Source: Scenedesmus sp. PABB004
Taxonomy: Eukaryota
Assembly: GCA_014905635.1 (NCBI GenBank)
Contig: JABVCE010000010.1
Coordinates: forward strand, 1,240,001-1,269,045
Length of the DNA: 29,045 nucleotides
Direction: 5' to 3'
Part shown: positions 1-27,403 of the stretch, piece by piece
How the letters are laid out: every line of letters begins with the position of its first letter
How positions within the stretch are numbered: the first letter of the stretch is position 1
Translations under genes and position numbers: made by a program
Notes under the pieces: model-generated
What the model was told of the DNA's origin: nothing
Databases searched by the model: none
The model's input: only the letters and a program-made list of their open reading frames with translations

Positions 1-131
1 CGCGCGTCGCCCGCATGAGGGCTGCTGTTCACGCCGGGCCGACCGGACGCGGCAGTCAGCGCGGGGAAATGCCGGTCCTGCAGCTCAGCGGCGGCGCGCG
101 CCCTGCTGCTGCTCACTGAGCAAGCGCCGCC

Positions 132-3100
132 ATGGCCCTCGGCCCCGCAGTATGGCTGTGCCTGGCCGCGGCGGCCGCGGCCCTGGCGCCGGCCGCAGCG
201 GTGCGGGTCGGGGAGCAGCGCGGAAGGGCGCCCGCAGGGCGCCCGCCGAGCAGCGCTCGCGCCGCGCCCGCGCCCGCGCGGCGATCAGCCCTGGCAGGCT
301 GCCCGACGTCGCCGCGCCGGGGCGCGCGCGTTGCTCTCGGAGTCACCGCGGCCGCCGCTGCTCCGCCGCAGGGCGTCGCGCCGTCGCTCATCGGCGCCGA
401 CGGCCCGGAGCTGACGCAGGTGGGTCGACGGCGGCAGCACCGGCGGCGGAGGCCCGCTGCCGCGCACGCGCGCCCGCCGCGCGACGCTCGTGCCGCCCGC
501 GCCGCGCAGGTCGCGGCCGCGCAGGCGCTCGGCCTCTCGGGCGCGGGCGTGCGCGTGTGCGTGGTGGACGACGCCGTCGACATCACCCACGCAGCATTCG
601 GCGGCTGCGCGGCCGCGGGCGACCCCGCGCCCTGCCGCGTGTTCTATTCGTACGACGCCTTCTCGCCCGGCGCCCCCGAGCGGGTGCGGCGCGCCGCCGG
701 CACGCGCAGGGCTGCGCGGCTGCTGCTGCTGCTGCTGCGGCGGCGGCGGCCGCGGCCTCGCGGAGGACCCGGCTCACGCGGCCGGCCCGCGGCCCGCGCG
801 CGCCCCCCGCCCGCGCGCGCAGCCGCCGGCGGCGTCGGTGGGGCACGGCACGCACGTGGCCGGCATCGCCGCGGGGCAGTTCCCGGTGCAGCTGCTCGAC
901 GCCGACGGCGTGCCGCTGCCCGGCCAGCGCGGCGTCGCGTATGGCGCCAGCCTCGGGGCGTTCAAGGTGCGGCGCGGCGCGGCGCTGCCCGTGGGGCCGT
1001 GCGCGGCCGGCGCCCCCGCCGGCCCGCCATGCGCGCGCGCCGGCCCCCGCCCGCCGCGCCCGCGCCCGCGCGTGCTGCCGCCGCGCCCTGCCCTCTAAAC
1101 CCCTGAACCGCCGCAGATCGGGAACGACCGCTTCGGCAACATGGATGACCCGGAGGTCGAGTGGCGCGCGCTGGCCGTGGCGCGGCGCGCCAAGTGTGAC
1201 GTCATTAACATGTCATACGGCTCCCAGCTCGGTGCGCCGCGCCGGCGGCGACGGACGGCGGCGCGTGTGGGGGCGGCCGGCGGCGCGCGCGGCGCTGGAC
1301 GCGGCGGCGCCGGCCGCGCCCAGGCTCTTTCCTCCGCCCGCCCGCGCGCCGGCCGCCGCCGCCCGCCGCCGCCGCCCGCCCACGTCCCCGCCCTCGCCCG
1401 CGCAGCATCGCCGTTCTCCGAGCAGTGGCAGCCGTACGCCGAGCTGGTCAAGGCAGGGGTGTCGGTCGTGGCGGCAGGCGGGAACGACGGCGTCGAGAAC
1501 GGCGCGCGCGGGCTGTTCACCACGGCGGGCCTGCCCGACGGCCTGCCGGGCATCATCTCGGTCGCGCCGGTCATGTCGGCGGCGACGCCCGGCAGCCTGC
1601 TGGCGCTCAGCGCGCCGGTCGACACGCCCGCGGGGCGGCGCGACACGCTGGGTGCGGCGCGGGGCGCGCGGCGCGCGGGCAGGGCAGGGGCGCGCGGCGC
1701 GGCGCGGTGCGCTCACGCCGCGGCCGCGCGCACGCTGCAGTGGCGATCAACCGCGCCGACACCGACGCGCTCACCAACTGCAGCGACGGGCGGGCGGGCT
1801 GCCGCCCGCTCGTGCTGCCCGCGCCGCTCGTGCTGCTGCGCACGCGGCCGACACTCGACCGCACCGGCTGCTTCCCGCCGGTGGTCGTGACCAACACCTC
1901 GGCGCCGCGCGGCAAGGTCGTGGTCGTGCAGGTGACTCGCCGCGCCGCGCCGCGCCGCGCACGCTCCCCGCCTCGACGCCGGCCGCTCAGCCCCTGACCT
2001 CCTCAGGGAGCCCTGAGCCCCGCTAAACCCTGCACGCGCCCCCTGCACGCGCCCAGGTCACGCAGGAGTGCTACCTGATGTACGTGGAGCACATCATCGA
2101 CAAGGAGGAGCTCTGGGCAGGCGAGCGGGCACCACGCTGTTATTCCTTGCCTGCTATGCCATGTCACTGTCACTCTCTGTTTGTTTGCCGGCCGCCGCTC
2201 GACGCGGCGCCGGGCGCTGCGCCGCGCCTCACATGGCGCGCCGCCGCGGCCCCGCAGGCGTGCTGGCGCTGCAGCCGCGCCTCGTGCTGATGGTTTTTCC
2301 GAGCGACGAGCTCGCGGCCGAGGCGTCCGAGGTGGATGTCAAGAACCGCCAGGCGAGGCGGCGCGGCCGCGGGGGCGCCGCCGCGCCCGCCGCGCCTGCC
2401 GCCCACACTCATGCCTCCCTCACGCTTCCCTCACGCGTGCCCTCCCCACCCCCAGGTGCCCGTGCTCTTCCTTCGCTCCGACGACGGCGCCGCGCTCGCC
2501 GCCGCGCTCGCGGCCGACCCGGGCGGCCGCCTCGCGCTCGCGGGCCTGCCCGGCGCGATTGAGGCGCCGCTCTCGCCCGACGTCGCGGGCCAGCCGGCCG
2601 TGTACGGCAGCCTCGGCCCCGCGGCGGACCTCTCGGTGAAGCCCAACATCGCCGCGCCAGGTGCGGGGCGGTTTTGTGACCTCGCAGGGCTCAGGGCTTG
2701 GGAACTGGCAGGGCTCAGGGGTTGTGGAGCACGGCCGCCTGCGCCGGCCGCCGCCGGCTCAGCCGCCGCCCCCTCCAGCCCTGCCCTGTCCCGCCTCCCT
2801 CCTTCAGCCAACCTCTACAGCTCCCTGCCCGGGTCGCGCTACCAAGTTTGGTCGGGGTGCGCCCGGGGGCGCGGCGAGGGGCGCGCGGGCGCGTCGGCGC
2901 GCCGCCTGCGCCTCGCGCGCTCACTCTCCAAGCTAGAGCGCGCCGGCCTGCCCGTCTCCCTCCCTCCCCTGCTCTCTCTCTCTCTCTCTCTCTCCCTCTC
3001 TCTCTCTCATACGCCGCGACGCCCGCCCGCCCCCTGCCCATCCTCAACCCTAAACCCTCGCCGTAACCGTCTCGCAGCACCTCCATGGCGTCGCCGTACG

Positions 3101-4446
3101 TCACCGGCGTGGTCGCGCTGTACCGCGAGGCGGCCGCGCGGCGCGGCGGCGCGTCCGCGTCCCCGCCGCCCGGCGGCTGGCCGGCGGCGGTCGCGGCGGC
3201 GCTCAAGAACACGGCGCGGCCGATGCGCTACCGCGACACGGCGCGCTTCTATCCCCCCGCGGTCGTGGGGTCGGGGCTGGTGCAGGCGCTCGCCGCGGCG
3301 ACGACGCGCGTGTCGGTCGCGCCCGCCGAGCTCGCGCTGCGCACGGGCGTGGCGGCGCAGGCGCTGTCGCTCGAGCTGTCCAACGACGGCGACGCCGACG
3401 TGACGTTTGTGGTGGGCCACGCGCCCGCGGTGGGGCTGAGCCTCGTGCGCGCGTGGTACGGTCAGCTCTACGACGAGGCCGCGCCGAGCGCGGCGCTCGA
3501 CGCGCCGCCGCGCGTGACCGTGCCCGCGCGCGGCGACGCGACGCTGGCGCTGCGGCTGTCGCTGCCGCCGGCGCTGCGCGCGGGGCACAGCATCGTGTCG
3601 GGCTACGTCACGCTCACGCCCGAGGGCTCAGGCGGCGCCGGCGGCGACGGCGCTGGCCCGGCCCAGCCGCCGCTTGCGGTCGCGTATCAGGGCGCCAGCA
3701 GGGACTACAGCAGTTTCACCGGCGCCGGCGCCCTCGCGCTCTTTGCGCCGCCGATGCCGGAGCTCGACGCGGTGCTCGCGGGCCAGCTCGCGGGGCGGCC
3801 GCCCGTGCACGTGTGCGACGCCGCGCGCGACCCGGGGGCGTGCTGGTTCCCCGGCCCGGCCGCGCCAGTGCGCGTGGTCGAGCGCGGCGCGGTCGTGCTC
3901 GCGGCGGCGCTGCTGCGCCCGGTGGCAGACCTCACGGTGCAGGTCTTCTGCGTCTCAGGGCGCTGCCCCGACGCGTCCGGACCGCCGCCCGGCGCCAGCG
4001 CCGGCGGCGGGAGCGGCGCCGGCGCGGGCAGCGGCGCAGCGGGCGGCGCGCGCGCCCCGCGCGAGGGCCGCCGCCCGCGCGCCGACGGCGCGCGGCGCGC
4101 GGCCGCCGCCGCCGCGGGCGCCGGCGGCGCGGCGCCGCCGGCCAACGGTACCTTCCTCGGTGACGTCTCGTTCGGGCCGTGCCGCGCGAGCGCGCCGCTC
4201 GCGGTCTCGCGGCTGTCCGAGGGGCAGTGTGATCTGATGGACAAGTGGCGGGGCGTCTACTTCCCTAGCTATTCGGACACCTCGCCGCTCACGTCGCTCG
4301 CGCCGGGCGCGACGTACCGCCTGCGCCTGCTGCTGACGCCGTTTGTCGCCGCCGGCGACGCCGCGGCGGGGCGGCGGCGCCCGCGGCCGCTCGTGCTCGA
4401 CGTGCCCAACCCGATCGTCGTGCTGCCGCGCCCCGGCGGCGAGTGA
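132..4446 (+). CDS. Secreted subtilisin-like serine protease (peptidase S8) with a PA-like insert and an Fn3-like C-terminal region; about 13 exons
   Basis: Signal peptide MALGPAVWLCLAAAAAALAPAAA. Catalytic motifs: VRVCVVDDAVDITH (Asp), GHGTHVAGIAAG (His), VINMSYG, VVAAGGNDG (oxyanion Asn), KPNIAAP, and WSG|TSMASPYVTG (Ser, split by intron 2857-3077). Exons approx 132-200, 372-419 (uncertain), 510-683, 823-966, 1117-1231, 1406-1651, 1741-1931, 2057-2120, 2258-2352, 2456-2660, 2808-2856, 3078-4446. Confidence 0.9.
2972..3008 (+). repeat. (CT)n microsatellite in a subtilisin intron
   Basis: Direct reading of the sequence. Confidence 0.9.
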
Positions 4447-4549
4447 GCGCGGCGGCGGCGGCGGCGGCGGCGGCGAGGTGGGGGCGGGGCACGGGGGCGT
4501 GCTCGGGCGGAAGAATTGGAGCGAGCGCATGCGCGCGGCCTGCGGCCGC

Positions 4550-4575
4550 CCGCACACAAGCTAGCTTGTGTGCGG
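4550..4575. other. Perfect 26-bp palindrome in the presumed subtilisin 3' UTR
   Basis: CCGCACACAAGCTAGCTTGTGTGCGG. Confidence 0.85.
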
Positions 4576-5264
4576 CACACAAGGCTCTCTGGTGGTGGGC
4601 CGGCTTGAGGGGCGCCATTCCAGCTCAGCTGTGCGACTTCCGCCACCTCTGTTAGGGAGTTCAGGCTTGCTGATCACTGGCTGGCGGCTGCAGTGGGCCT
4701 CTCACAGCACAAACCACACACCCATCGCGCGCGCGCGCGCGCGATTTCATGCGGTGTCATGCGGGGCATTCGAAAACACGGCGACCACGGGGCGCGGCGG
4801 GACGAACGCACGCGGCGGCGGCGCCGCCGCGCACGTTCACGCGTGCGCGTGTGCTGCGCGCGCGGGCTGGCCGCCTGGCTGGCGCGCGCGCGGCAGGGCC
4901 GACTGCTCGGGTGGGGGCAGAAAGGTACTTGTCGTTGAGCTTGTGTTGCAAGCTGGGTGTAGAGCTGGGCTGGGCTGCAACGAGACGGGGGTGGCGGCAG
5001 CGGCGCGGGCGCACTAGGTCTTGAGTCGAAGCCCTCGCGCGTGCCGCCGCGACGCCTGGCGCGCCCCGGCATGCGACCCAGCGCGGCCCGCACATCCCGA
5101 GACCTGCCGCGCGCCCGCACACGCCGGCCTGGCGCACAGGGCTCGCGAGCAGCAGCGAGAGGTGCCGGCCTCGACACACCGCCAACGCGCCGACGGCCGC
5201 CGCCCGTGCAGCGTACAGTCGCGGCTCTTGCCCAGCGCTTGATCGGGGCAGGCGGGCGGCAGCG

Positions 5265-7200
5265 ATGCAGGCGGCCGGCGTGGCGGCGCGGTTGCGCGCC
5301 GTCTGCCTCTGCCGCGCGCTCTGCTCTGGCAGCTGGGCGGGCGATCTGGCGCACGTCGGAGGCCCGCGGCCGGGCGCCGGCGGCAGCGGCGGCGGCAGCG
5401 GCGGCGGCGGCGGCAGCGGCGCGCGGCTGCAGCAGCAGCGGCGCGCGGCGACGCTGCGCGACCGCCATCGGCCCGCCCAGCTGCCACTGCCGCGTCTTGA
5501 GGGACTGTGGCCGGCGCAGCAGCGCCACGCGGCGCTCCTGGGCGGCGGCGCCAGCGTGGGAGCGGCGCTGCTGCAGCCGGCGTGGGCGCTCGACTCTGTT
5601 CTTTCGCGCCGCGCGGCCTCCTACCACGCGGCGCGCGCGACGGGTGCGGCGCCCGCGCGGCGCCGCCGCGCCGCGACCTGCGCCGCGCGCGCTCACGCTG
5701 CCGCGCCCCTGCGCCGCCGCCCCGTCGGGCCGCCACAGAGTACAAGATGGAGAGCCTCCTATACTTTGATTCCTGCTGGCGGCGCTTCGAGGAGCGCTAC
5801 GGCGCGGTGCGCCGCCGGCGGCACAGAGCAGAGCAGAGCGCGCGGCAGAGGCAGGCGGCCGCGGCGCCGGCGGCGGCCGCGGCGGCGCCGAGTGCCGGCG
5901 CCGCAACGGCCGCGGCCGCGCCGCGCCCATGCCGCAGGAGTTTCGCGTGCCGCGGGAGATCGTGTGGCTCAACGGCGCGCCCGGCTCGGGCAAGGTGCGG
6001 CGGCGGCGGCGGTCGTGTCGCCCCCGCGCGGGCGGGCGCCGCAGAGCCTGTGCGCCGTTGCGCCGGCGCGCGGCAGCCGAGCCCGCCCCCGAGCCCGCCC
6101 CCCGCGGCGGCCGCCGCCCCGCCGCCGCCGCGGCGCGCAGGGCGTGAACACGCAGCACATCCTCAAGACGCGCGGCCTCACCAAGCACCTCACCATCTCG
6201 GGACTGCTGGTGCGCCGCCGCGCCGGCTCCGGCGCCCGGCAGCAGCCCCGCCCTCCCGCGCGCCGCGCGCGTCGCAGCGGCCGCCGCCGCCGCAGGGGCC
6301 GCCGCGGCCGCCTCGCGCGCCGCGACCCACCGCGGCGCGCCCCCGCCCCGCCGCCCGTCCGCCCGCGCGCTTGCAGGAGAGTTACCCCGAGGCGCGGCGG
6401 CTCGTGGACGCGGGCGAGATGGTGCCAGACCAGGCGCGGCGGCCGCGGCTGCTGCCGCGCCCGCGGCGCGCGCCGCCGGGGCCCCTCCGCGCCCGGGCGG
6501 CACGCCTCGGCGGCGGCAGCAGCGGGGTGCAGCCGCGCACGCGCCGCATGATGGTCCCGTCGGCGGTGAAGCACACCACCATCACCGCCAGTCTCGACGC
6601 CCGCCGCGCCGCCGCGCCACCACGCCGCCGCGCCGCCGGCGCCGCCTGGGGTGGCTCGCAGATGGTGGGGGATCTGCTGCTCGAGGCGCTGCTGCTGGAC
6701 GAGCCGGGGCTGCAGGACGACCTGGGCTTTGTGGTCGACGGCTTCCCACGCACCGCGACGCAGGCGCGTGGGCGCGGCCTGCACGGGCGCGCGCGCGGGA
6801 CACACACACGCCGCCGCCCTGCAGCCCCGGCGCGCCCGCGCGCCTGGCGGGGCGCGCGCGGGTGGGTGGGGTGCCGGCGCGCTGTGTTTGACCATCCCAC
6901 ACATGGTCAAACGAGCTGGTCAAAGGTGTGACCCGCCCGCCCGCCCGCCGCCGCCCCGCCCCCGCCGCCTGGCTATCAACCTAGGTTGACTTCCTGAAGC
7001 TGCTCTTTGACAAGCTCTCCGAGCTGCACCAGCGCCACGCCGACACGCCCGAGGCCATCGCCTTCCCGCGGCCCTCGTTCAAGGCGCGGCACAGGGCGCA
7101 GACGCTGGGCGGCGCCGCGCCCGCCGGCAAGCGCGCGCGGGGGCTTTAGAGTGCCGTGCTGTCGCCCCGCTCCGTCCGCTGTGCTTCGTGCCCCCCCCCC

Positions 7201-7288
<88 letters not shown>

Positions 7289-9550
7289 ACACTCACACAC
7301 CACAGGTGGTCATCCTGTACGTCGACGAGGAGACGAGCATACGGCGCCAGCTGCAGCGCGCGCGCGTCGCCAACCTGCACAACCGCCGCGTCCTCGACGC
7401 GGGTGCGCGCCGCGCGGGCCCAGGGCTTAGGGTTTAAACCCTACGTGGCGCGGCACCCGCCCGCCTGCCGCCCGCCCGCCAGCGCCTTGCCTCGGCCGAC
7501 CTGTGCAGCGCGGCGCGGCGCCCGCCTTCGCCTGCAAACAACGCCCGCCCGCGGCGCCGACCCCGCCCCGCACCCGCCCCGCCCCGCGCCCGCCCCGCCG
7601 CGCCCCGCCGCGTCCCGCCCCGCCCCGCCCCGCCGCGCAGGCGCGGGCCACTTTTACGAGGAGCGCAGCACCGACACCGACATCGACAAGTGCCGCAAGC
7701 GCTACGCGATATTCAAAACACACTACGCCGCGACGTGCGCGGCGCGCCCGCACGCGCGCGCCGCGCCCCGCGGCGGCGGCGGCGGGGGGCTCGGGGCTCG
7801 GGGCGCGCCGCGCTGCGCCGCGCTGCTGGCCCGCACGGGCCGCGGCCGGCGCGAGAGCGCGCGCCTGCCCGCCCGCTCACCCGCCGCTCACCCGCAACGC
7901 TTGCCCCACACACATGCACACGGTGCACTGCTGCTGCCTGTGTACCCAGGCTGCGCCTCAAGCAGTTCTTCCCCTTCACGCTCATCGACGCGATGGGCAG
8001 CCTCGAGGAGACGCGGCAGCAGATCACCAAGGAGCTGCGGTGCGGCCCTCTGCCGCCGCCGCGCCCGCCGCGCCGCCGCCCGCCGCTGCCGCCGCCCGCC
8101 GCTGCCGCGCGCCCTGCCGCCCCGCCGCGCCCACACCACGCGCACTCCACGCACCGCCCCTGCCCGCCATCTGTCCACGCCGCCGCCCACGCCACCCACG
8201 CCCCCCGCCCCCCCCAAACCCTAAACCCTGAACCCTAAACCCTAAACCCCCCAACTAGATACCAGAGCAGCCTCGACCTGAGCACGAGCACGTACGAGCT
8301 CATCCGCCACCTCCCGCTCGCCAAGGACGTCGTGCTCAGCGCGCGGCAGGAGCTGGTCATGCGCCTCGACGGCTACGCGGAGGCGAGCTTCGACCTCTTC
8401 GTCGAGGTGGGGGCGCCTGTGTGCTGCTGCGTGAGTGTGTGTGGGTGTGTGTGTGCACAGGGGGGCCTGTGCGTGGGCCTGTGCGTGTTGCTGTGTGTGT
8501 GTGGGGGGGGGGGGCAGGGAGCTGTGGACTGTTCGTTCGAGGAGCGCGCGTGTGCGTGACAGCAGGGCTGGGCTGGTTGTCTGTCGGTGGGTGCGTCTAG
8601 ACGCGGTTTACTTGCGTGGGCGGCGCCGCGCCTGCACGCGTCGTGTGCGCGCGCGCCGCCCCGCCCGCGCCCCGCCCTGCCGGCCGCCCAGCACCCCGCC
8701 GCCGCGCGCCGCCCGCCGACTGCCACCGACTGCCGCGCGCGTCGCGTCTGCGTCGCCAGGTGGTGGACCGCATCATCAACGACGTGCTGCCGGTCGTGCG
8801 GCAGAGCGGGCTCGCGGGGCACGCCGAGTACGTGACGCGCAGCCCCTTCTTCACCGACCACCCGGTCGCGATCGACATGCTGGTCGACGTCCTCACAGAC
8901 AGGCGCGGCGGGGCGGGCAGGGGGGAGGGGGGGGGGGGGGCGCTGGCGCGGGGTGGTGGGCGGGGCGGCGGCGTGGCGGGCGGCGCGGCGGCGAGCGCGC
9001 GGGAACGCGGCGGGTGCGGGGCCTCCCTTGACACGCCGCGCGCCGCGGGGCTTGCGCGGGGCGTGGCGCAGGGGGTTCCACGTGTGCTACATTCGCGAGG
9101 ACACGGCGGTGCCCGAGGCGGTGGACCTGGCGACCGGCGCGGTGCGGTCGAGCCTGCGGCCGTGCCACAAGTTCCGCATCTCCTTTGACGCGCGGGGGCC
9201 GCGCGACGAGATGAAGGTGCGTGTGGGGGGCTTAGGGCTTGAGACGGGAGCTTAGGGTTCACGGGGCGCTGGCGGCGCCGCCGGCGACCCCGACCGACCG
9301 ACCGACCGACCGCGCCGCCCCTCCCCCCGCCCCCGCCCGCGCCCCGCCCGCCTCGCGACGCGTGCGTCGCTGCCGGGCTCAGGCCATGGAGATCGCGGCG
9401 CGCATGGCAGAGTCGAGCGCGACGCTGCAGCGCGACGTGCGCATCAGCCACAGCGTCATCCCAGAGGCCTTCCTCGACGGCGGCGCCGAGGACGACGACG
9501 ACGCGCCGCGCGCCGGCGGCGGCCGCGTCGCGGGGTTTATGGGCTCCTGA
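5265..9550 (+). CDS. Adenylate kinase-like (NMP kinase) protein with a long C-terminal extension and a probable organelle transit peptide; 14 exons
   Basis: P-loop WLNGAPGSGK|G, GEMVPD and GFVVDGFPRT motifs. Frame-consistent exons: 5265-5643, 5739-5806, 5938-5994, 6141-6209, 6377-6433, 6662-6763, 6985-7083, 7306-7402, 7641-7734, 7950-8039, 8259-8406, 8760-8902, 9072-9216, 9383-9550. The start codon is less certain than the rest. Confidence 0.88.
7204..7304 (+). repeat. (CA)n microsatellite abutting the acceptor at 7305
   Basis: Direct reading of the sequence. Confidence 0.95.
8216..8249 (+). repeat. Interstitial plant-type telomeric repeat, (AAACCCT) x5, just before the intron acceptor at 8258
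   Basis: AAACCCT AAACCCT GAACCCT AAACCCT AAACCC. Confidence 0.85.
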
Positions 9551-10408
9551 GCCCTGGGGGCCCTGGTCTGCGTGTGTGGCGCGTGGGCCGCTGACCCGCC
9601 GTGGCGGCGTGGCGGCGCGTGGGCGTGGGCGAAGGCTTTGGTGCCGGCGGGGGGCGGGGATGCGGCAGGGGGCGGTGCGGCGCGCGGCCGCGGCCGCGCG
9701 CGCCCCGGGCCCTGGCGGAGCAGCAGCAGCTTTCTTCTCATGCCCCCATTGTCTTTTGCGGGACGCCCCGCGTTGTTTTTTGTCGCGCGCGGGCAGGGCC
9801 TGCCGCCAGGCCCGCCCCCAGGGTGTGGTTAGCCATTCTTTGCGCATGCCAAGCGGCAGCGGAGGCCTGGGCAGCGGCAGCTGCAGCTGCGCAGCAGCAC
9901 CAGCACTGTGGGTGCTGTGCGCACCTACACACCATCAAAAGCCTCTCTGCTGCCTCTGGACAACTTGCAAGCTGCTGCTGTGAACGGCGAGCCGAGGCAG
10001 GCAGGCAGGACGCGCCGCCGGCCGGCGCCGCCGGCAGTCACAGCGCGGCCGGCCACTGCGGTGGCCGCCGCGACGCGCGCTCGGCGCTCGTGCGGCCCCC
10101 AGACGCTCCAGCGCGCCGCGCCGCTGCGCGGGGAGCTCGACGGGCCCACGGGGAGCACAGCTCCCACGTGGGGCACGCGCGTTTCACGTGCAGTAGGCGG
10201 GCCAACCGGCCGAGATGTGTTAGACTGTTTGCCCGCGTTTGAGCTGCGCGCGGCGCGCACATAAAGCCGCAGCGCCCCACGCACTGCCCACAGGTAGTAC
10301 AGCGAGTACGTTGGCAGCCGCATCGACCGGCCTAGCCCCCCGCGCCGCCCGCGAGCCAGCCCGCCCGCCAGCCGCGCCCCGACTCGCAGCGAGGCCCAGC
10401 AGCTCGCC

Positions 10409-11040
10409 ATGGCTTCGTGTACGCTCAACGCGGTCGCCATTGCGGCGCTGATGCTGCTGGGTGAGCGAGCGCGCAGCTCGCGCGCTTGATGGCGGGCGGG
10501 AAACGGGCGCCCCGGGTTGCCCGCACCGGCACCAGGGGAGGGCGAAAGCGCACCTGCAGCTAAACCTGAGCAGACCCTTGTTTTTTGACGTGGCGCGCGG
10601 CCGCCGCGGCGCTCCGGCGCCTGTTCAGGGCCCCCCGCGCGCGTTGGTCTCGCCTCGTTTGACCCCGCCGCCGCCACCGCCGCCGCCGCCGCCGCCGCCT
10701 GCAGCCGCCGGCGCCGCGCGCGCGCAGGGCGCGGACAAGTGGGGCCGGGCCAAGCAGTGGACGCCCGGGCTGCACCGTGAGACGCAGGCCAACGCGTACA
10801 GCTCGGCCAAGGGCCAGAACCCGGGCGGCCCTGGTGACGCGTTCACCTACTACAACACCGAGTCCTCCTCCACCAGCAACTACAACGGCGTCTACTACAA
10901 CACCGGCGACGGCAAAACGGTCGAGGCGGGCGACAAGGCCAAGGGTGGCTGGGCGGGCGCGTACAACAAGAACGACCCCGACTTTGGCACGACCTACGCC
11001 ATCGCGGGTGAGTTAACTCAACCCGGCACGCCCGCCCGCC

Positions 11041-11083
<43 letters not shown>

Positions 11084-11776
11084 GGGCGGCCGCGCCCGCG
11101 CCCGCGCCTGCCGCCGCCACCTGCACACCCGCCCGCTCACCCCCGCCCCGCCGCCGCCGCCGCCGCGCCCGCCGCGTCGCCGCAGCCAACTTTGACCCCG
11201 AGTACGCGACGCAGCAGGGCACGCAGTCGATCTCGGGCACCTACGAGGGCGCGCGCGCGGTCGCGGGGTCGGGGTCGATGTTTGGCGCCGCGCACGGCGC
11301 GGCCGTGACCAACACCATCGACGCGTACGGCCCGACGCCCTTTGAGCCCATCACGCGCGGCCCCGCCTCGTCCGTGGCGTCGGGGCCCGACGGCCTGCGC
11401 GTGCGCAGCTTCACCAACATCGCCCCCAAGTCGGCCGCGCAGAGCGGCATCGGCTCCGGCCCCGCCGCCATCGCGAGCGGTGAGAGGCCGCGCGGCCGCG
11501 CCGCGCGCGCCGGCTGGGGCAACCCCCCGTGCCGCGCCCCGCCCCGCCCTCGGCCGCGCGCGCCCGCTGACCACCGGCTGCCGCTGCCGCGCCGCCGCGT
11601 CCCGCGCAGCCTGGGAGGTGTCGGCCGCCGCGCGCGCCGGCCGCGACAAGGCGACGCCGCCGGTGACCGTCGGCAGCCGCGAGGCCGGCGACGCCTACCA
11701 GGACAAGGCTGGCCTCGGCCGCCGCTTCGCCAAGCTGCGCCACCGCCGCGCGCTGCTGCTGCGCGGCGCGCACTGA
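10409..11776 (+). CDS. Secreted Gly/Ala/Ser/Thr/Tyr/Asn-rich protein of unknown family, 271 aa; 4 exons
   Basis: Signal peptide MASCTLNAVAIAALMLLAAGAARA. Exons 10409-10460, 10705-11007, 11186-11479, 11610-11776 are joined by three phase-1 GTGAG...CAG introns. Strong GC3 codon bias; ends ...KAGLGRRFAKLRHRRALLLRGAH*. Confidence 0.8.
11041..11082 (+). repeat. (CGCA)n tetranucleotide repeat in an intron
   Basis: Direct reading of the sequence. Confidence 0.9.
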
Positions 11777-12662
11777 GCGCCGGCGGCTGGCGCGACCGGG
11801 GCGGCGGAGGGTTGCCTGCACTGCAGTCAACCCAACGGCCAGCGCCCAACCAACCCGCGGAGTCTGCCCTCACTCAAGCCAACCAACACAAGAATAAGGT
11901 CTGCGACCAACCAGCGGCAGCAAGACCACCCCACCCGATGATGACCGGCGCAGGAGCGACAGCACAAATCAAAGGCCCGGGCGCCCAGTGGCGCCCGCGC
12001 GCCCGCAGCCCGTGCACGTGCGTGGCGCGCCGCCACGCGGGCGCTTCCGCGAGAGAGACCCCACCCTGTGTGCCTGCTGCTCTCGCCCTCCTCCTGCATG
12101 CAAGCGTGCAGCAACGAGAGCGCCCCGCTCTGAACCCCCTCCATGGTTCCCCCAAAACGTGTGTGGCGACGACGTTCAGTCAACTTTAATCACGGGCGTG
12201 CGAGTGGTGTCGCTGCAGCGGGTGTGCGTGCCAAACCAAAACCCAAATTCATTTAGTTTGTGTGTGCGACCAGCAGTGACGACTGACGCGTGCATGTGCG
12301 CACCGGCGTGGCGCCCGCGCGCCCGCCTCGCACAGACTCGGATGACCTGATCTGATGCACCCCCGCCGCGTGCCGCCAGCGCGTGCACCTCCGCGGCCGT
12401 GCGCGGCCTGCCGCTGCCCAACCCTCTGCACGCCGACGGCTGCCATCGAGGGCCGCCCTGCGCGCGCGCGCGCGTCGATTGCTCGCGCGCGCGCGCGCTG
12501 CCCGGCTCGCTGACATGGCACCGTGGCTTCCCCTCCCGCCTGCGTGTCACCTGTGCGCCGTTGCGCACGCCCATTTATTCAACCTTGATTCGACAGATCT
12601 CTCTCTTCCGACCGACCGACCGACCGACCTGGGGCCAGCAAGCAGGGGCGCGAGTTTTGCCT

Positions 12663-12686
12663 TGTGTGTGTGTGTGTGTGTGTGTG
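12663..12686 (+). repeat. (TG)n intergenic microsatellite
   Basis: Direct reading of the sequence. Confidence 0.85.
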
Positions 12687-13247
12687 GAGAGCCGAGGGCA
12701 CAGACCAGACCAGCAAGCGCCCGGCGCCGCATGGCCTGTCGTCGCATCTACTTCTGGCGTGGTGTGCGCGCGCGCGCGTGTGTGTGTGCGCGGCCGTGCA
12801 CGCGGTGGGCGCTGCCAGCTGCTGTGACTGCACAGCCCCCTTGGCTTTGATCGCCACCGACCCCTCCGCGGCAGCAGTCGATCGGCTAGCGGGCGCAGCA
12901 CGGGCAGTCACACGCCGCACACAGTCTTGCGCTGCGCAGCCTCACGGCGCGCGGGCCCCCCCAGGTGCTGCTCTCGGCGCGCAAGTTTGCAGCCGCCGTC
13001 CGCCCGCTGCTGCGCTGTTCCAGCAGCAAAGTGAGTCCAAGGGCATCATCATCAGCGACATCCTGCAGGATGCAGCAGCAGCTGCTGCTGCGCGCGCACC
13101 GCCAGACCTGCCTGCCTGCCTGCCTGTCTGCCAGCCTCCAGCCGCCTGCCTAAAATGATCTGTGGATCACACAATCACCAGGGACCGATCAATGAGGGAT
13201 CAGCCCACACTCCACACACAGCACACACTCCACACACGCCCACACGC

Positions 13248-14793
13248 TCACACGCGCGGGTGCAGCTGCCCCGCCGACGGCAAGGCCAGCACCTCCACCT
13301 CCACGCCGCTGCCGCACAGCTGGCCGCCAGCCCCAGTGACGCCCACACTGGGCGCAGCACCCTCGTCGGGGCCGTCGGCACCGGCGCCGGCGTCCGTCGC
13401 GAGCCAGCCCGCGGGCAGCACGCGGCCGAGCGCGCGGCGCCCCGCGGCGGTGACGGCGCGCTCCCAGTCGCCGTACGCGAGGCCGTACGCGGTCGCGACG
13501 GCGAGGCCGCCGCCGAGCAGGTTGCCGATCGTGGCGGGGATGAGGTTGGCGGTGAGGAAGCGGCCGACGGTGATGGGCGCGCCGAGGCGCATGCCGAGGG
13601 GAATGATGAACTGGTTGGCGATGCAGTGCTCAAAGCCCATCGTCACAAACGCGGAGATGGGGAACCACACGCCCAGCAGCTTGCCCGTGATGTCCTGCGC
13701 CGCGTTGGCCTGCCACACGGCGATGCAGACCAGCCAGTTGCACAGCACGCCCTTGGCCACCGTCGCGCTGAACGAGTGGCTGCACTTTTTGAGCGCCAGC
13801 TCGATCGTGAACGCCTCGCGGTGCTCAAACACGTGGCCCGCGACCATCAGCTGCCCCAGCAGCAGCGCGCCTGGGCGGCACGACGAGGGCGGCGCAGCGC
13901 GGGCGGCGCACGCGTCAGCGGCTGCCGCCGCTGCCGCCGCCGCCGCCGCGGCGCCGCCGCCGCACGGGCGCGGCACGCGCACCCGCGAGGTTTGTGAGGT
14001 AGCTCCACACCAGGATGTAGGCGGCCTGGGTCAGGCTGGCGCGGCGCTGCATCGCGGCGACGGTCATGTAGGCGATGTTGGAGGTGAAGAGGCTCGCGCC
14101 GTTGATGACGCACATGCTGAGGCCCACGGGGAAGCCGTACGCGCCAAAGAGCAGGTTGAACATCCCCGGCTCGGCCTTGCGGTACTCGGGGCTCAGCTGC
14201 CCCGCTGTTGGACGCGGCGGGCGGGCAGGTGGATGGGTCAGCGAGCGCGCGGCGGGCGGCGCGCGCACGCCAGCGCGGCCGCGGGGCGTGTGCGGCGCGC
14301 GCACCCGCAATCATGCAGGTGCTGAAGCCAAAGCCGATGAAGGCGCCGGCCAGGACGCCGAGCACCGTCTCGCGCAGCAGGCTGTTGCGCGGCTTGGCCG
14401 CGCCTGCGCACGGCGCACGGCGGCGGTGCGGCAGGGGCGCCAGGGGCGCCAGGGGCGTCAGCCAGGCGCGCGCGGGGGGCGCGCAGCCGCCGCCGGCCGC
14501 GCCGCGCCACGCTGGCGCGGCGGGCGCTGGCGCCGCGGGCGCTGCCGCTGCTGTCGCCGCCGGCGTCAGCCGTAGCCGGCGCCACGCGCAGCGGCTGCAC
14601 CGTGCGCGCCCCCGACCCACTCACCGCTGTCGGCGATGTGCGCATAGGTCTCCGCCGGCCCCAGGCAGCGCGTGCGGCTGTCGTGCGCCGCGGCGGGCGG
14701 CGGCGCCGCCGGCGCCGCCGCTGCGCAGGCGGCGTACTTGGCGCTGGGCCGCAGCCCGGCTTCGCAGGCGGAGTCGGCCGTGATCCGCTTCAT
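13248..14793 (-). CDS. NAR1: Formate/nitrite transporter (FNT) family, NAR1-type, 370 aa; 4 exons
   Basis: FNT motifs LAGAFIGFG, FPVGL, LFTSN, GVLCNWLVC, FEHCIAN and TIGNLLGG. Exons (minus strand) 14793-14625, 14403-14305, 14204-13983, 13870-13248, all with phase-1 introns. The paralog number cannot be assigned. Confidence 0.93.
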
Positions 14794-15345
14794 GGCGCAG
14801 CGGCGAGCCTGCGACGGCGCGCGGCGAGTCGGCGCCGCAAAAACGGCGGGAACAGCCGCCGCGCCTCGCTCCGATCCCGCGGCGCCCAGCCCTGGCGCGG
14901 GAGGCTTGCAACAGCCGCGAATCACCTCGGGGCGGGCGCACGCGCAAATCCAGGCAGTGGGCGCGGCGCGAGAGCGGCGGCAGCGTTCGGGCGGGCGCGC
15001 GTGGCGGGCGAGCTGAAAAGGGGCGTCTGCTGGGGGCGAGCGTTGGTGGGAACGATGCAGGGAGCGCTCCGGTCGCGGGTATTTGTGGCGCGCCGTCGCG
15101 CCGCGGCGGTTCAAGGTTCAAACACTGACGCCCCGGCGACGCCGTCCGCAGACAGCCGTTGAGGCACGCAGTTCTAGCAGCTCCAGCCATGTACAAGGAT
15201 TGGGCTGGTTGGGCCGCCCACAAAGCCCACAAGCAAGCTCCGTGCTGATGTGGACGCAAGCACAGTCGGGAAAAAAAAAACCGCCCCGCAGCCGCGGCAG
15301 CCGCCGCTCGAACATCGACGCTCAAACTCAACCCCGCCCGAGCGC

Positions 15346-17030
15346 TTAGCGGTTGGGGCCGGCGTTGATTTGAGCCATCATGTGGCTGCCCCGCTTGCTC
15401 AGCTTGCAGCGGGGCTTGCGCAGGCGCACGCCGGGGCGGTGCGCCTTGTCGGCAAACGCGTTGGCATACTCCGCGCAGCTGTGCTTCCCGTCACCTGCGC
15501 CACGGCGCGGCGGCGCGGCGCGGCGGGGCGGTGAGCACGGCGGCTGGCTGCGCTGGGCACGCGCGGCTGCTGCGCGCGGCGCGTGGGCGCACCGTCGGCG
15601 TCCATGTGATCCAACACGGCGCCGGCGAATGCAAAGCCCACGAACCCGCCTGGCGAGGGAGAGGCGGGAGAGCGCAGGGAGGGTCGGCCCGCGCCGCCGC
15701 CGGCGGGCGCCAGCCGCCCGCGCGCGCCAGCGCGCACCTTTGCCGTCGGTGCGGTCGCCCTCGAAGCCGTCCAGGCAGAAGGCGTTGCTCAGGCGGCGCG
15801 CCATTTCACCCATTGACGTCCCCAGCACCTCTTCCATGTCGGGGCACACGTCCGCCGGCGCCCCCGCGGCGGGGCTGGTGTCGGACGCCGCCCCGGCGAG
15901 GCGGATCGTTGAGCCGGTCCCACACTTGGGGCAGCCGACGCTGGTGTCCGTGTTGCTGCGGGCGGGCGGCGGCGGCGCGGCGCGGCGCAGCGCGGCTCGG
16001 CGGGGGCCGTGCGCGCAGAGCGCGCGGCGCCCGGGGGCGCGGCGCGCTCACGCGTTGTTGCAGTTGACGTCGCACGCGCCGGCGGCCCTGCGGGGGCGGG
16101 GGCGAGGCGGCTCGCCGTGAGCCGAACAGAGCGAGCGCGGTCATCGCGCGGCGCGCAGCAGGGCTGGCAGGCGGCGCGCGGCGGCACGCGGAGCAGCGAC
16201 GCACGTGGAGCAGCCCTTGTCGGCCGCCTCGGCCTTGGAGCACGACGGCCAGCCCTGCACGTGCGCCAGGGGAGGAAGGGGGTTGGCAGCTGGCTCACCG
16301 CCGGCAACTCGCTCGGCATCGGCAGCTCGCTGGCGCGGCTGCGTGGCGCGGCGCGGCGCGGCGCGGCGCCGCACCCCCGGGTATGTGACCTCCTTGTCGT
16401 CAAGTACTGTCACAAACTCACGGCCGCAGCTGTAACACGGCTCGCAGTTGCATCCCCAGCTGCAGAGGGGCGCGCGGGGGGGGGGGGTGCAGTTGGCAGG
16501 CGGGCCCTGGAGGGGCGAGGCCAGCCCGGCGCCGCGGGCGCTGCAAGCGCGGCGCGGCGCGGCGCACTCACATGTTGCACTGCGGGGCCGGCGGCGCGGC
16601 GCCGGGGGCGTGGTTGGAGCGGCCAGGGGCGGCGGGCGGGGGTTGGGGTCAGACTAAGCGGCGGGCGTCGGTGCGGCTGGGCAGGCGGGGCGCCGCGAGC
16701 TTGCCCTGCCGCACGCACATAACCAATGATGCCGTACATAGGGTACGTATAGTTTTTGCCATTATACACCTGCGGCGGCGGCGGTCAGGTGACCTCTGCG
16801 GCGAGGCGGCGCGCCCGGCTGCGTGGGGCGCTCCTGCCCCTCACCTGCGTGTACATCCGAGTCTCGGTGCACGTGGACAGGTGATACCACCACTCCTCAC
16901 TGAAAACGCCGTAGTAGTTGTAAGAAATGCAAGAATCACTCGGGCTGATGCAGCCGGCGACAGGACCGGCGCCGAGCAGCACCAGCGCCGCGGCCGCCAG
17001 CGCGGCGCGTTGAGCGGCAGCGCCAGCCAT
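15346..17030 (-). CDS. Secreted cysteine-rich protein (18 Cys) with a Diedel-like CNIWGCNC motif and a C-terminal EF-hand loop, 279 aa; 9 exons
   Basis: Signal peptide MAGAAAQRAALAAAALVLLGAGPVAG. Exons (minus strand) 17030-16845, 16769-16719, 16579-16572 (8 nt), 16459-16375, 16254-16205, 16087-16052, 15955-15738, 15649-15593, 15494-15346 give an 840-nt open frame. EF-hand loop DADGDGKHSCAE. Confidence 0.78.
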
Positions 17031-17759
17031 CGTGCTACGACTGCGCCTGCAGTGGCAAAGCGCGACCAGCCGGCGGCGCGGCGTGTTCAGTGTGCGCTGG
17101 CGCCGCACGACACCCGAACAGCTCGCGGCAGCCGGCCGGCCCGCCCCTGCCCCGCCGCGGCCCGCCTGCCTCAGCGAGGCCACCGGATGTGTTGGAAATG
17201 CGACAGCGCCTCACCTGGTGTTGCGTGCGCGGCCTGGGAAGTTGCGGGCGAGAGGTGCAGCGAAGGGTCGGGGCGCGCGCGGGTCGATCGGGCGTGCTGC
17301 GTGCGCGCTGGTTGCACCGTGCGCGACGTGTCTGAGCTCGGGCCGGCGGCGCGGTGGGCGGGGGCAGCTGGGGAGCGCGGGGGGAGCGCGTTCGTACGGG
17401 AGTTCCGCGTGCTGCGCTTACGCCCGCGGTCACTCCCGCGCTCGCGAAGGAAGCAGGGCGCCGATCGGCAGGGCGGGCTGGGGGCCTGTGGCGCTCGCTC
17501 GACGAGCGCGCAGTGCTGCGGGAGGGCCGCCGCCCGCACGCGCTGCGCTGCGCCGGCGGCGTGGTCGCGGGCGCGGCCGGGGGTGCTTGTTGCATCGCGC
17601 TGCCGTGCTCCGCCCAGGCCCGCCGCGCGGCCCCCGCGGACGAGCTCAACCAAGACGGCGAGCCGCGCGGCCCCCGCGTGCGCGCCGCCAGCTTGCCTCC
17701 GACCTCCTGCGAGCAGACGGCCGGCGCCCCGGGCGGCGTGCGCCCCGCCCCCGCTCCAG

Positions 17760-17790
<31 letters not shown>

Positions 17791-17819
17791 CTGCTGCTGC
17801 TGCTCCCCGCGGCGCCGCG

Positions 17820-27403
<9,584 letters not shown>

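Follow-up and report, generated by a model that had tools for sequence, protein, structure and literature searches.

Strand-sorted telomere-type micro-repeats within the mirror-image introns of a G+C-rich stretch of Scenedesmus sp. PABB004

The 29,045-nt stretch of the Scenedesmus sp. PABB004 genome analysed here (referred to below, at its full length, as the window) is gene-dense and rich in G+C (~76%, with 85-100% at the third codon positions of confidently assigned exons). Its introns contain short tracts, 7-19 nt in length, built from the telomere unit of plant type together with its heptamer-periodic variants. When read in the sense of the host gene, the G-strand of this unit (TTTAGGG) is found close to donor sites and the C-strand (CCCTAAA) close to acceptor sites. 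An earlier note on this DNA had pointed to this arrangement and proposed that telomere repeats may have been co-opted as splicing signals.

The gene model was obtained with a dynamic programme of our own, which combines codon bias and coding potential with splice sites, and was then corrected by tblastn of homologues for two genes, those of eIF5B and of an adenylate-kinase-like (AK) protein. In its final form it comprises six genes with 58 introns (11,011 nt, median length 183 nt) and exons totalling 10,743 nt, the remaining 7,291 nt belonging to neither; some of the intron tests described below (bridging, the branch motif and the all-against-all blastn comparison) were run on an earlier model with 56 introns. 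The junctions are based on homologue alignments for the eIF5B and AK genes, and on prediction alone for the other four. Pfam matches support a subtilase, a formate/nitrite transporter (FNT), eIF5B and the N-terminus of SPT6, the match to ADK being weak, and a comparison with Rfam gave zero matches in the window. Three of the genes recur throughout this text:

69..4446, plus strand: subtilase (S8) gene, about 12 predicted exons, from our own model and a Pfam Peptidase_S8 match on exon 829-957
5747..9550, plus strand: adenylate-kinase-like (AK) gene, 13 exons, from tblastn and a weak Pfam ADK match
17820..27403, minus strand: eIF5B gene, about 26 exons, with tracts in 9 introns

The nearest relatives by eIF5B exon identity are Sphaeropleales green algae (Scenedesmus sp. 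NREL 46B-D3 with 96% and Monoraphidium minutum with 94%), and the junctions of this gene downstream of 23290 were set by tblastn of the homologues P0002, P0035 and P0037. All junctions of the AK gene were confirmed by tblastn of the transcript-derived P0122 and the Chromochloris protein P0127, which also uncovered two extra exons. As for the S8 gene, no homologue was found by a word-based search and an exhaustive search produced four weak matches; all of its junctions are prediction only. The S8 gene contains C-strand boxes in three introns and a degenerate G-type heptamer array in one. The tracts of the window are as follows:

1095..1102, plus strand: C-strand box CTAAACCC in intron 967-1116 (S8), 14 nt upstream of the acceptor
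2023..2031, plus strand: C-strand box CTAAACCCT in intron 1932-2056 (S8), 25 nt upstream of the acceptor
2683..2723, plus strand: degenerate CTCAGGG-type heptamer array, two mismatches from the unit, near the donor of intron 2661-2807, with zero matches at one mismatch or fewer
3046..3058, plus strand: C-strand tract AACCCTAAACCCT in intron 2857-3077 (S8), 19 nt upstream of the acceptor
7427..7443, plus strand: head-to-head G-strand/C-strand palindrome of 17 nt, 25 nt after the donor of intron 7403-7640 (AK)
8216..8249, plus strand: longest C-strand array, about five units (one of them the variant CCCTGAA), ending 9 nt before the homologue-confirmed acceptor junction of intron 8040-8258
9231..9259, plus strand: two units of the variant CTTAGGG in intron 9217-9382 (AK), 15-43 nt downstream of the donor
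10560..10566, plus strand: lone C-strand 7-mer in the middle of intron 10461-10704 of an unnamed gene, an exception to the polarity
18698..18706, minus strand: C-strand box, 15 nt before the acceptor of the GC-AG intron 18683-18932 (eIF5B)
19040..19341, minus strand: two-armed intron of eIF5B, with a G tract at 19301-19317 and C tracts at 19087-19095 and 19056-19066
19700..19709, minus strand: G tract in intron 19430-19712, beginning 4 nt downstream of the donor; towards its 3' end this intron is CA-rich
20350..20383, minus strand: G-strand array of three exact units and variants in intron 20094-20406, 24-57 nt downstream of the donor
20865..21092, minus strand: two-armed GC-AG intron, with G tracts at 21045-21054 and 21061-21072 and C boxes at 20885-20892 and 20911-20918
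21248..21258, minus strand: C-strand tract in intron 21240-21450, 8 nt upstream of the acceptor
21570..21576, minus strand: AAACCCT inside CCCAAAACCC repeats, near the acceptor of intron 21546-21769
21991..21999, minus strand: G tract in intron 21849-22006, 8 nt downstream of its GC donor
22804..22849, minus strand: three variant units (CCCAAAA/CCCTCAA) in intron 22789-23000, close to the acceptor
25675..25683, minus strand: C-strand box CTAAACCCT in intron 25646-25794, 29 nt upstream of the acceptor

Intron 21240-21450 also contains, upstream of its C-strand tract, a 13-nt C/A-rich minisatellite of about five CCCCCAAAACCTCT-like copies (21279-21349, minus strand).

The abundance of the telomere-type tracts exceeds chance and local composition by far. 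Across the whole window the exact unit occurs 14 times on the two strands taken together, with 0.23 copies expected and none of 100 dinucleotide shuffles reaching 14; with up to one mismatch allowed, there are 62 matches vs 13.9 expected (shuffle maximum 23). All 14 exact copies are intronic, as are 108 of the 109 7-mers of the tandem repeat counted in any register (46 in the G-sense and 62 in the C-sense, the remaining one being located in an exon at 9533), which bears out the earlier note in that the repeats are real and restricted to introns. Scarcity in exons carries no information by itself, a stop codon being present on either strand of the unit; the useful contrast is provided by the 7.3 kb of non-intronic non-coding DNA, where no register-free 7-mer was found. 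Further expectations were derived from block shuffles, in which each intron was shuffled inside 15-, 25- or 50-nt blocks, preserving both its local composition and its gradient. Exact G-strand copies in the 5' halves of introns (8 vs ~0.1 expected) and exact C-strand copies in the 3' halves (6 vs 0.2-0.3) reached their observed counts in 0 of 300 shuffles at each of the three block sizes. The register-free counts were similarly in excess when 20-nt blocks were used (46 vs 1.0 for the G-sense and 62 vs 2.2 for the C-sense, with 11 as the largest value in 500 shuffles). A spacing of 7 nt recurs 11 times between AGGG and AGGG in the 5' parts (0.3 expected) and six times between CCCT and CCCT in the 3' parts (0.6 expected), and telomere-unit sequence is found in tandem, as in interstitial telomeric sequences. 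TTTAGGG is the unit synthesised by the telomerase of the three Sphaeropleales tested (PMC3318450). Tracts are borne by 16 of the 58 introns (three in the S8 gene, three in the AK gene, one in the unnamed gene and nine in the eIF5B gene). As to the 16 sites listed in the earlier note, 14 of them do contain an exact or one-mismatch copy; of the other two, 2683-2723 is a degenerate array only and 25673-25684 matches the repeat in another register.

Within introns the two strands are sorted by position. In the sense orientation, the eight exact G-strand copies lie at 0.03-0.20 of intron length and the six exact C-strand copies at 0.83-0.93. The same distribution is seen for tracts, with 10 out of 10 G-strand tracts at 3-23% of intron length and 14 out of 16 C-strand tracts at 76% or beyond, the exceptions being the head-to-head palindrome 7427-7443 and the lone 7-mer 10560-10566. 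These two aside, G tracts start 4-39 nt from the donor and C tracts end 8-47 nt from the acceptor. Orientation tracks transcription rather than the DNA strand, being the same in the plus-strand S8 and AK genes and in the minus-strand eIF5B gene, just as had been described at the outset, and the presence of both strands of the repeat in introns 19040-19341 and 20865-21092 was likewise confirmed. Most 3' elements consist of one box only, built on a conserved core (CTAAACCC in nine introns and CTAAACCCTG in six), and 8-mers spanning a tandem junction occur in one or two introns only. At the level of sequence, the recurrence of this core hints at some constraint on the box itself.

The orientation rule is, in fact, one expression of a general mirror-image architecture of the introns. 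Along their length the GC skew runs from +0.26 to -0.39 and the AT skew from -0.40 to +0.37. The base composition of the first fifth (A 6, C 32, G 49 and T 13%) very nearly matches that of the last fifth read on the opposite strand (A 13, C 53, G 27 and T 7% in the sense orientation, or A 7, C 27, G 53 and T 13% when reverse-complemented), so that introns pass from keto-rich to amino-rich as mirror images. With T at 7%, the acceptor regions are indeed as U-poor as previously stated. Simple repeats other than the telomere unit are sorted in the same manner between the 5' and 3' halves of introns: (GT)4+ (7 vs 1), (AC)4+ (2 vs 12), runs of five or more G (32 vs 4) and of five or more C (11 vs 48), GGG (216 vs 59) and G-quadruplex-type motifs (19 vs 2). 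At the sequence level, GGG is present within some 70 nt downstream of donors, where G-run enhancers would be expected. The telomere pentamers are the strongest motif pair enriched in the 5' parts and, reverse-complemented, in the 3' parts; for k-mer enrichment in general, such symmetry was only slightly above its control (correlation 0.43 vs 0.40 for the same k-mers). Near acceptors, AG is depleted 5- to 7-fold (0.005 vs 0.037 expected in the last 20 nt of introns) and stays low for ~60 nt, and this exclusion keeps the AG-containing G-strand out of acceptor regions; AGGG is found 7 times in the 3' parts vs 14.9 expected. Only one copy in the discordant orientation was seen, with ~1 expected from block shuffles, and therefore the polarity of the tracts is what the composition gradient predicts. 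A polarity exceeding the G-5'/C-3' skew and AG avoidance, as implied by the earlier note, was thus not observed (other complementary repeats being sorted alike), an outcome which that note had itself named as telling against its proposal.

Long dinucleotide arrays with a GT/AC polarity like that of fish introns are also present. A (CA)51 array (7204-7304, plus strand) reaches the acceptor of AK intron 7084-7305, and a long (GT)n array (~18060-18110) begins at the donor of eIF5B intron 17856-18115 (minus strand), but the two arrays are located in different introns.

One way to account for such ends is that specific end-to-end pairing has been selected, the donor-side G tract and the acceptor-side C tract bridging the splice sites and rendering a polypyrimidine tract dispensable. 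Introns 19040-19341 and 20865-21092 are predicted to fold into whole-intron hairpins in which the G and C tracts are paired (minimum free energy -212 kcal/mol, z -3.1 and 1/100 shuffles as stable for the former; z -2.4 and 2/200 for the latter), ~4 standard deviations more stable than block shuffles. In addition, the G/C and the T/A contents of the ends are both mirrored, which is unexpected for a polypyrimidine-type signal; the predicted pairing of the first with the last third of introns (0.29; 56 introns) is above that of global shuffles (0.18, Wilcoxon p = 0.0045); and a precedent exists in the complementary AC/GT repeats of teleost introns (PMC4691745). On the other hand, the same bridging value equals that of shuffles which keep the gradient (0.26, p = 0.67), and the mean fold z relative to block shuffles is only -0.36. 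Duplexes between the 5' and 3' ends of the same intron are no better than those formed across introns (-28.8 vs -29.9 kcal/mol for 30 nt and -59.5 vs -59.4 for 60 nt), and 5'/5' duplexes are stronger still. The 3'/3' duplexes are weak (-18.5 vs -28.8 kcal/mol for 30 nt), indicating that the C/A-rich acceptor regions are intrinsically unstructured. G and C tracts co-occur near chance (in three introns vs ~1.5 expected, Fisher p = 0.16), and one of these three is the intron with the adjacent palindrome (7403-7640), leaving tracts at opposite ends, and folds in which they are paired, in two introns only. Moreover, introns with C tracts alone, e.g. 8040-8258 and 22789-23000, fold more weakly than their own shuffles. 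Overall, end pairing as modelled is possible but generic, register-free and not intron-specific; the intron-specific pairing that had been suggested for these ends found no confirmation, and we consider its selection quite unlikely. As a separate observation, the donor consensus of all 58 introns, GTGCG(G/C), and the reverse complement of their acceptor consensus, CTGCG(G/C), mirror each other, by which the two splice-site regions could pair over ~7 nt.

Other explanations dispense with a role for the tracts in RNA. They could be neutral scars, i.e. interstitial telomeric sequences that stem from slippage, or from telomerase or repair acting at breaks, and that are merely tolerated within introns in whichever orientation puts no AG close to an acceptor. 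Their 7-nt periodicity and variant units are typical of degenerate telomere arrays, the palindrome 7427-7443 has the form expected of a capped and rejoined break, they cluster regionally in the downstream part of eIF5B, and AG exclusion would account for the absence of the G-strand near acceptors. Yet scars should also be found outside introns, where we counted none in 7.3 kb of non-intronic non-coding DNA vs ~10 expected at the intronic density (16 introns per 11 kb); nor would scars be expected to lie within some 60 nt of splice sites in introns of 60-430 nt, or to share the single-copy core CTAAACCC(T)G in 6-9 introns, and so we hold this explanation to be unlikely. A related idea makes the tracts a by-product of the birth of the introns themselves, whether from a break in coding DNA that was capped on both sides and rejoined around filler, or from insertion of a foldback (terminal-inverted-repeat) element of the introner kind. 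A doubly capped break reads G-strand and then C-strand on either DNA strand, which would yield the polarity without any selection, and intron termini do resemble inverted repeats (the first 14 nt begin GTGCG and the last 14, reverse-complemented, CTGCG), although this consensus is merely the donor and acceptor consensus of all 58 introns. Furthermore, residues 344-531 of P0002 correspond to a single exon in five plant-like metagenome loci (L018, L025, L037, L064 and L080), and the window has five eIF5B introns across the same residues, four of them tract-bearing. The metagenome scan with an eIF5B exon yielded 80 loci, mostly intronless or plant-like, with a best identity of 84% and no close relative among them; introns were found in the plant-like loci only. 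What speaks against such a birth is that introns share no complex sequence (the all-against-all blastn of 56 introns gave simple-repeat matches only), that direct repeats at junctions average 2.59 nt vs 2.69 for permuted pairs, and that 13 of the 16 tract-bearing introns are one-armed, with arms 100-250 nt apart where there are two. An origin from introners or transposons was rejected within the window, there being neither a family of similar introns nor a target-site duplication, and the explanation as a whole appears very improbable. Hardly any weight is given to the view that the tracts are DNA elements equivalent to the telo boxes of land plants, bound by telomere-repeat-binding factors and controlling genes of the translation apparatus. 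eIF5B is admittedly a translation gene, and the identical sequence is reported for the 5' untranslated regions (UTRs) and first introns of plant genes (PMC3022908). But the eIF5B tracts lie 5.4-8.7 kb from the start codon, tracts also occur in a protease and a kinase-like gene, and the promoters and 5' UTRs of the window contain none. The plant motif declines from 5' to 3', with an enrichment in the first two introns (PMC3022908), contrary to the pattern of the window, and a DNA-binding site would not sort by position within each intron. A telo-box-like placement was accordingly rejected, the tracts lying deep in genes and the 5' regions of the window being empty.

The interpretation that we favour, if tentatively (with a probability of roughly 0.4), is that micro-repeats of telomere type are kept, and expand, solely where their orientation supports, or is at least compatible with, a mirror-image intron architecture imposed by splicing. 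The tracts are the most sequence-specific member of a family of complementary low-complexity repeats which fill the introns in fixed polarity, and it would be reasonable to suppose that telomere repeats may have been co-opted as a splicing signal. Starting from the observed location, polarity, excess over composition, heptamer periodicity, gradient and AG exclusion, we infer both the origin of the seeds and every functional step along the following lines. Telomere-type seeds would be generated by telomerase at breaks or by slippage, and would persist and expand only where their orientation suits the asymmetry imposed by splicing. After the donor, G-strand tracts might supply intronic enhancers of the GGG/UAGGG type or RNA quadruplexes. 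Before the acceptor, C-strand tracts would offer an unstructured, AG-free C-rich stretch with an A-island (CUAAACCC); such a C/A-rich stretch could substitute for the U-rich polypyrimidine tract and may also provide the branch adenosine. The compositionally complementary ends could, in any register, generically zip together. Regarding the branch adenosine, CTRAAC is present in nine of 56 introns at 11-52 nt from the acceptor (the nearest copy at 11-35 nt in all nine, with further copies at 51-52 nt in two), which places an adenosine in the range of ~15-40 nt upstream of acceptors where branch sites lie, and six of these nine introns have no YTNAY alternative.

Several observations weigh against the retention of the tracts by a splicing-imposed architecture. 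All the results come from one 29-kb window. A selective filter is not directly demonstrated, given that the discordant orientation is not depleted relative to composition. High G+C by itself does not demand the motif, as other GC-rich algal eIF5B loci (70-73% GC) have 0-1 copies. Tracts are present in only 16 of the 58 introns and are clustered, with 8 of 12 consecutive eIF5B introns (18683-22569) bearing them vs 1 of 11 further upstream, and the FNT and SPT6-like genes are tract-free; such clustering looks more like local history than a general requirement. The branch-point component is affected as well: CUAAAC and CUGAAC break the CURAY consensus by having A at the last position instead of Y, so that the CURAY-like branch point proposed in the earlier note fails despite the suitable distance from acceptors, the canonical CTRAY is found in only eight of 56 introns (26-62 nt from the acceptor), and 26 of 56 have neither YTNAY nor CTRAAC.

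A more far-reaching version would have the two telomere strands recruited as a two-part code of intron ends, UUUAGGG after the donor and CCCUAAA before the acceptor, which would be read by strand-specific RNA-binding proteins or directly paired, and would replace the U-rich tract and U2AF-type recognition. This we find distinctly doubtful. Gbp1p, the subject of a paper of 1999, is reported to bind G-strand RNA. If true, the two-part code would parallel the U2AF2-independent AC/GT introns of fish, having arisen independently and from telomere sequence.

By analogy, the closest precedents for the architecture that we favour are the G/C-rich enhancers of human introns, structured introns of the GGG...CCC type and the AC/GT-bridged introns of fish. 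In GC-rich human introns, G-rich and C-rich intronic enhancers are described as offsetting weak polypyrimidine tracts (Murray et al. 2008, PMC2481429). The window resembles them in its G-runs downstream of donors, C-runs toward acceptors, short GC-rich introns and poor U tracts, but differs in that its elements are heptamer-periodic and telomere-type, with T/A islands and not only G/C triplets. Structured human introns are reported to have GGG at the start and CCC at the end (PMC4691745). The (AC)m-(GT)n introns of teleosts (Lin et al. 2016, PMC4691745) likewise have complementary simple repeats at opposite intron boundaries, acceptors without a U-rich tract and register-free pairing, and introns of the window, too, carry (GT)n on the donor side and (AC)n on the acceptor side. 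The differences are that the repeats of the window include the telomere heptamer, that its source is a green alga rather than a vertebrate, and that co-occurrence is not above chance and bridging no better than the gradient alone. Complementary repeats at opposite intron ends are thus found here as in teleosts, whereas their co-occurrence in the same intron does not exceed chance, and predicted bridging lies above global shuffles but not above those that keep the gradient, two introns standing out; membership of the fish-type class is therefore not established. Plant telo boxes or short interstitial telomeric sequences (Gaspin et al. 2010, PMC3022908) share with the tracts the same AAACCCTA/TTTAGGG sequence in short copies within genes; they are concentrated in the 5' UTR and the first two introns of genes, and act at the level of DNA, whereas the copies of the window lie deep in genes, at both intron ends, and are strand-sorted by splice site. 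Introners (Gozashti et al. 2022, PMC9860276) are comparable in being associated with an algal genome, many short introns and inverted-repeat-like termini, but the window shows neither a family of similar introns nor target-site duplications.

The literature that we searched contained no report of polarised telomere repeats at intron ends. Should the arrangement prove to be genome-wide, it would add an independent lineage, the second, where canonical splicing signals are replaced by complementary simple repeats at the ends of introns, and one in which such repeats are made from the organism's own telomere unit. It would also connect the activity of telomerase and repair to the raw material of splicing elements, and would offer a system for studying intron recognition at extreme GC, with acceptors of ~7% U and a quarter of the predicted donors being GC. 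Even if neutral, the tracts and the mirror gradient would be strong intron markers for gene prediction in algae of this kind.

GC donors are in fact unusually frequent in the window, 15 of the 58 predicted introns being GC-AG, mostly with the context (C/A)AG|GCGCG. Eight of these donors are fixed by homologue alignment, an in-frame GT alternative being absent or requiring insertions; the sites concerned are 18932, 21092, 22006 and 22569 on the minus strand and 6434, 6764, 7084 and 8903 on the plus strand. Between 14794 and 17819 (~3 kb), neither strand has a convincing gene in the model, and telomere-type 7-mers are also absent. The eIF5B exon 23215-23354 (minus strand) contains a one-base frame shift at a run of CCC (~23289-23293, after '...SVLRS'), which is probably a homopolymer assembly error rather than real, as the homologues read straight through. 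Finally, in the low-complexity N-terminal part of eIF5B (25795-26484, minus strand) a module of about 21 residues is repeated, three exons in a row encoding one copy each; this pattern suggests that an exon was duplicated.

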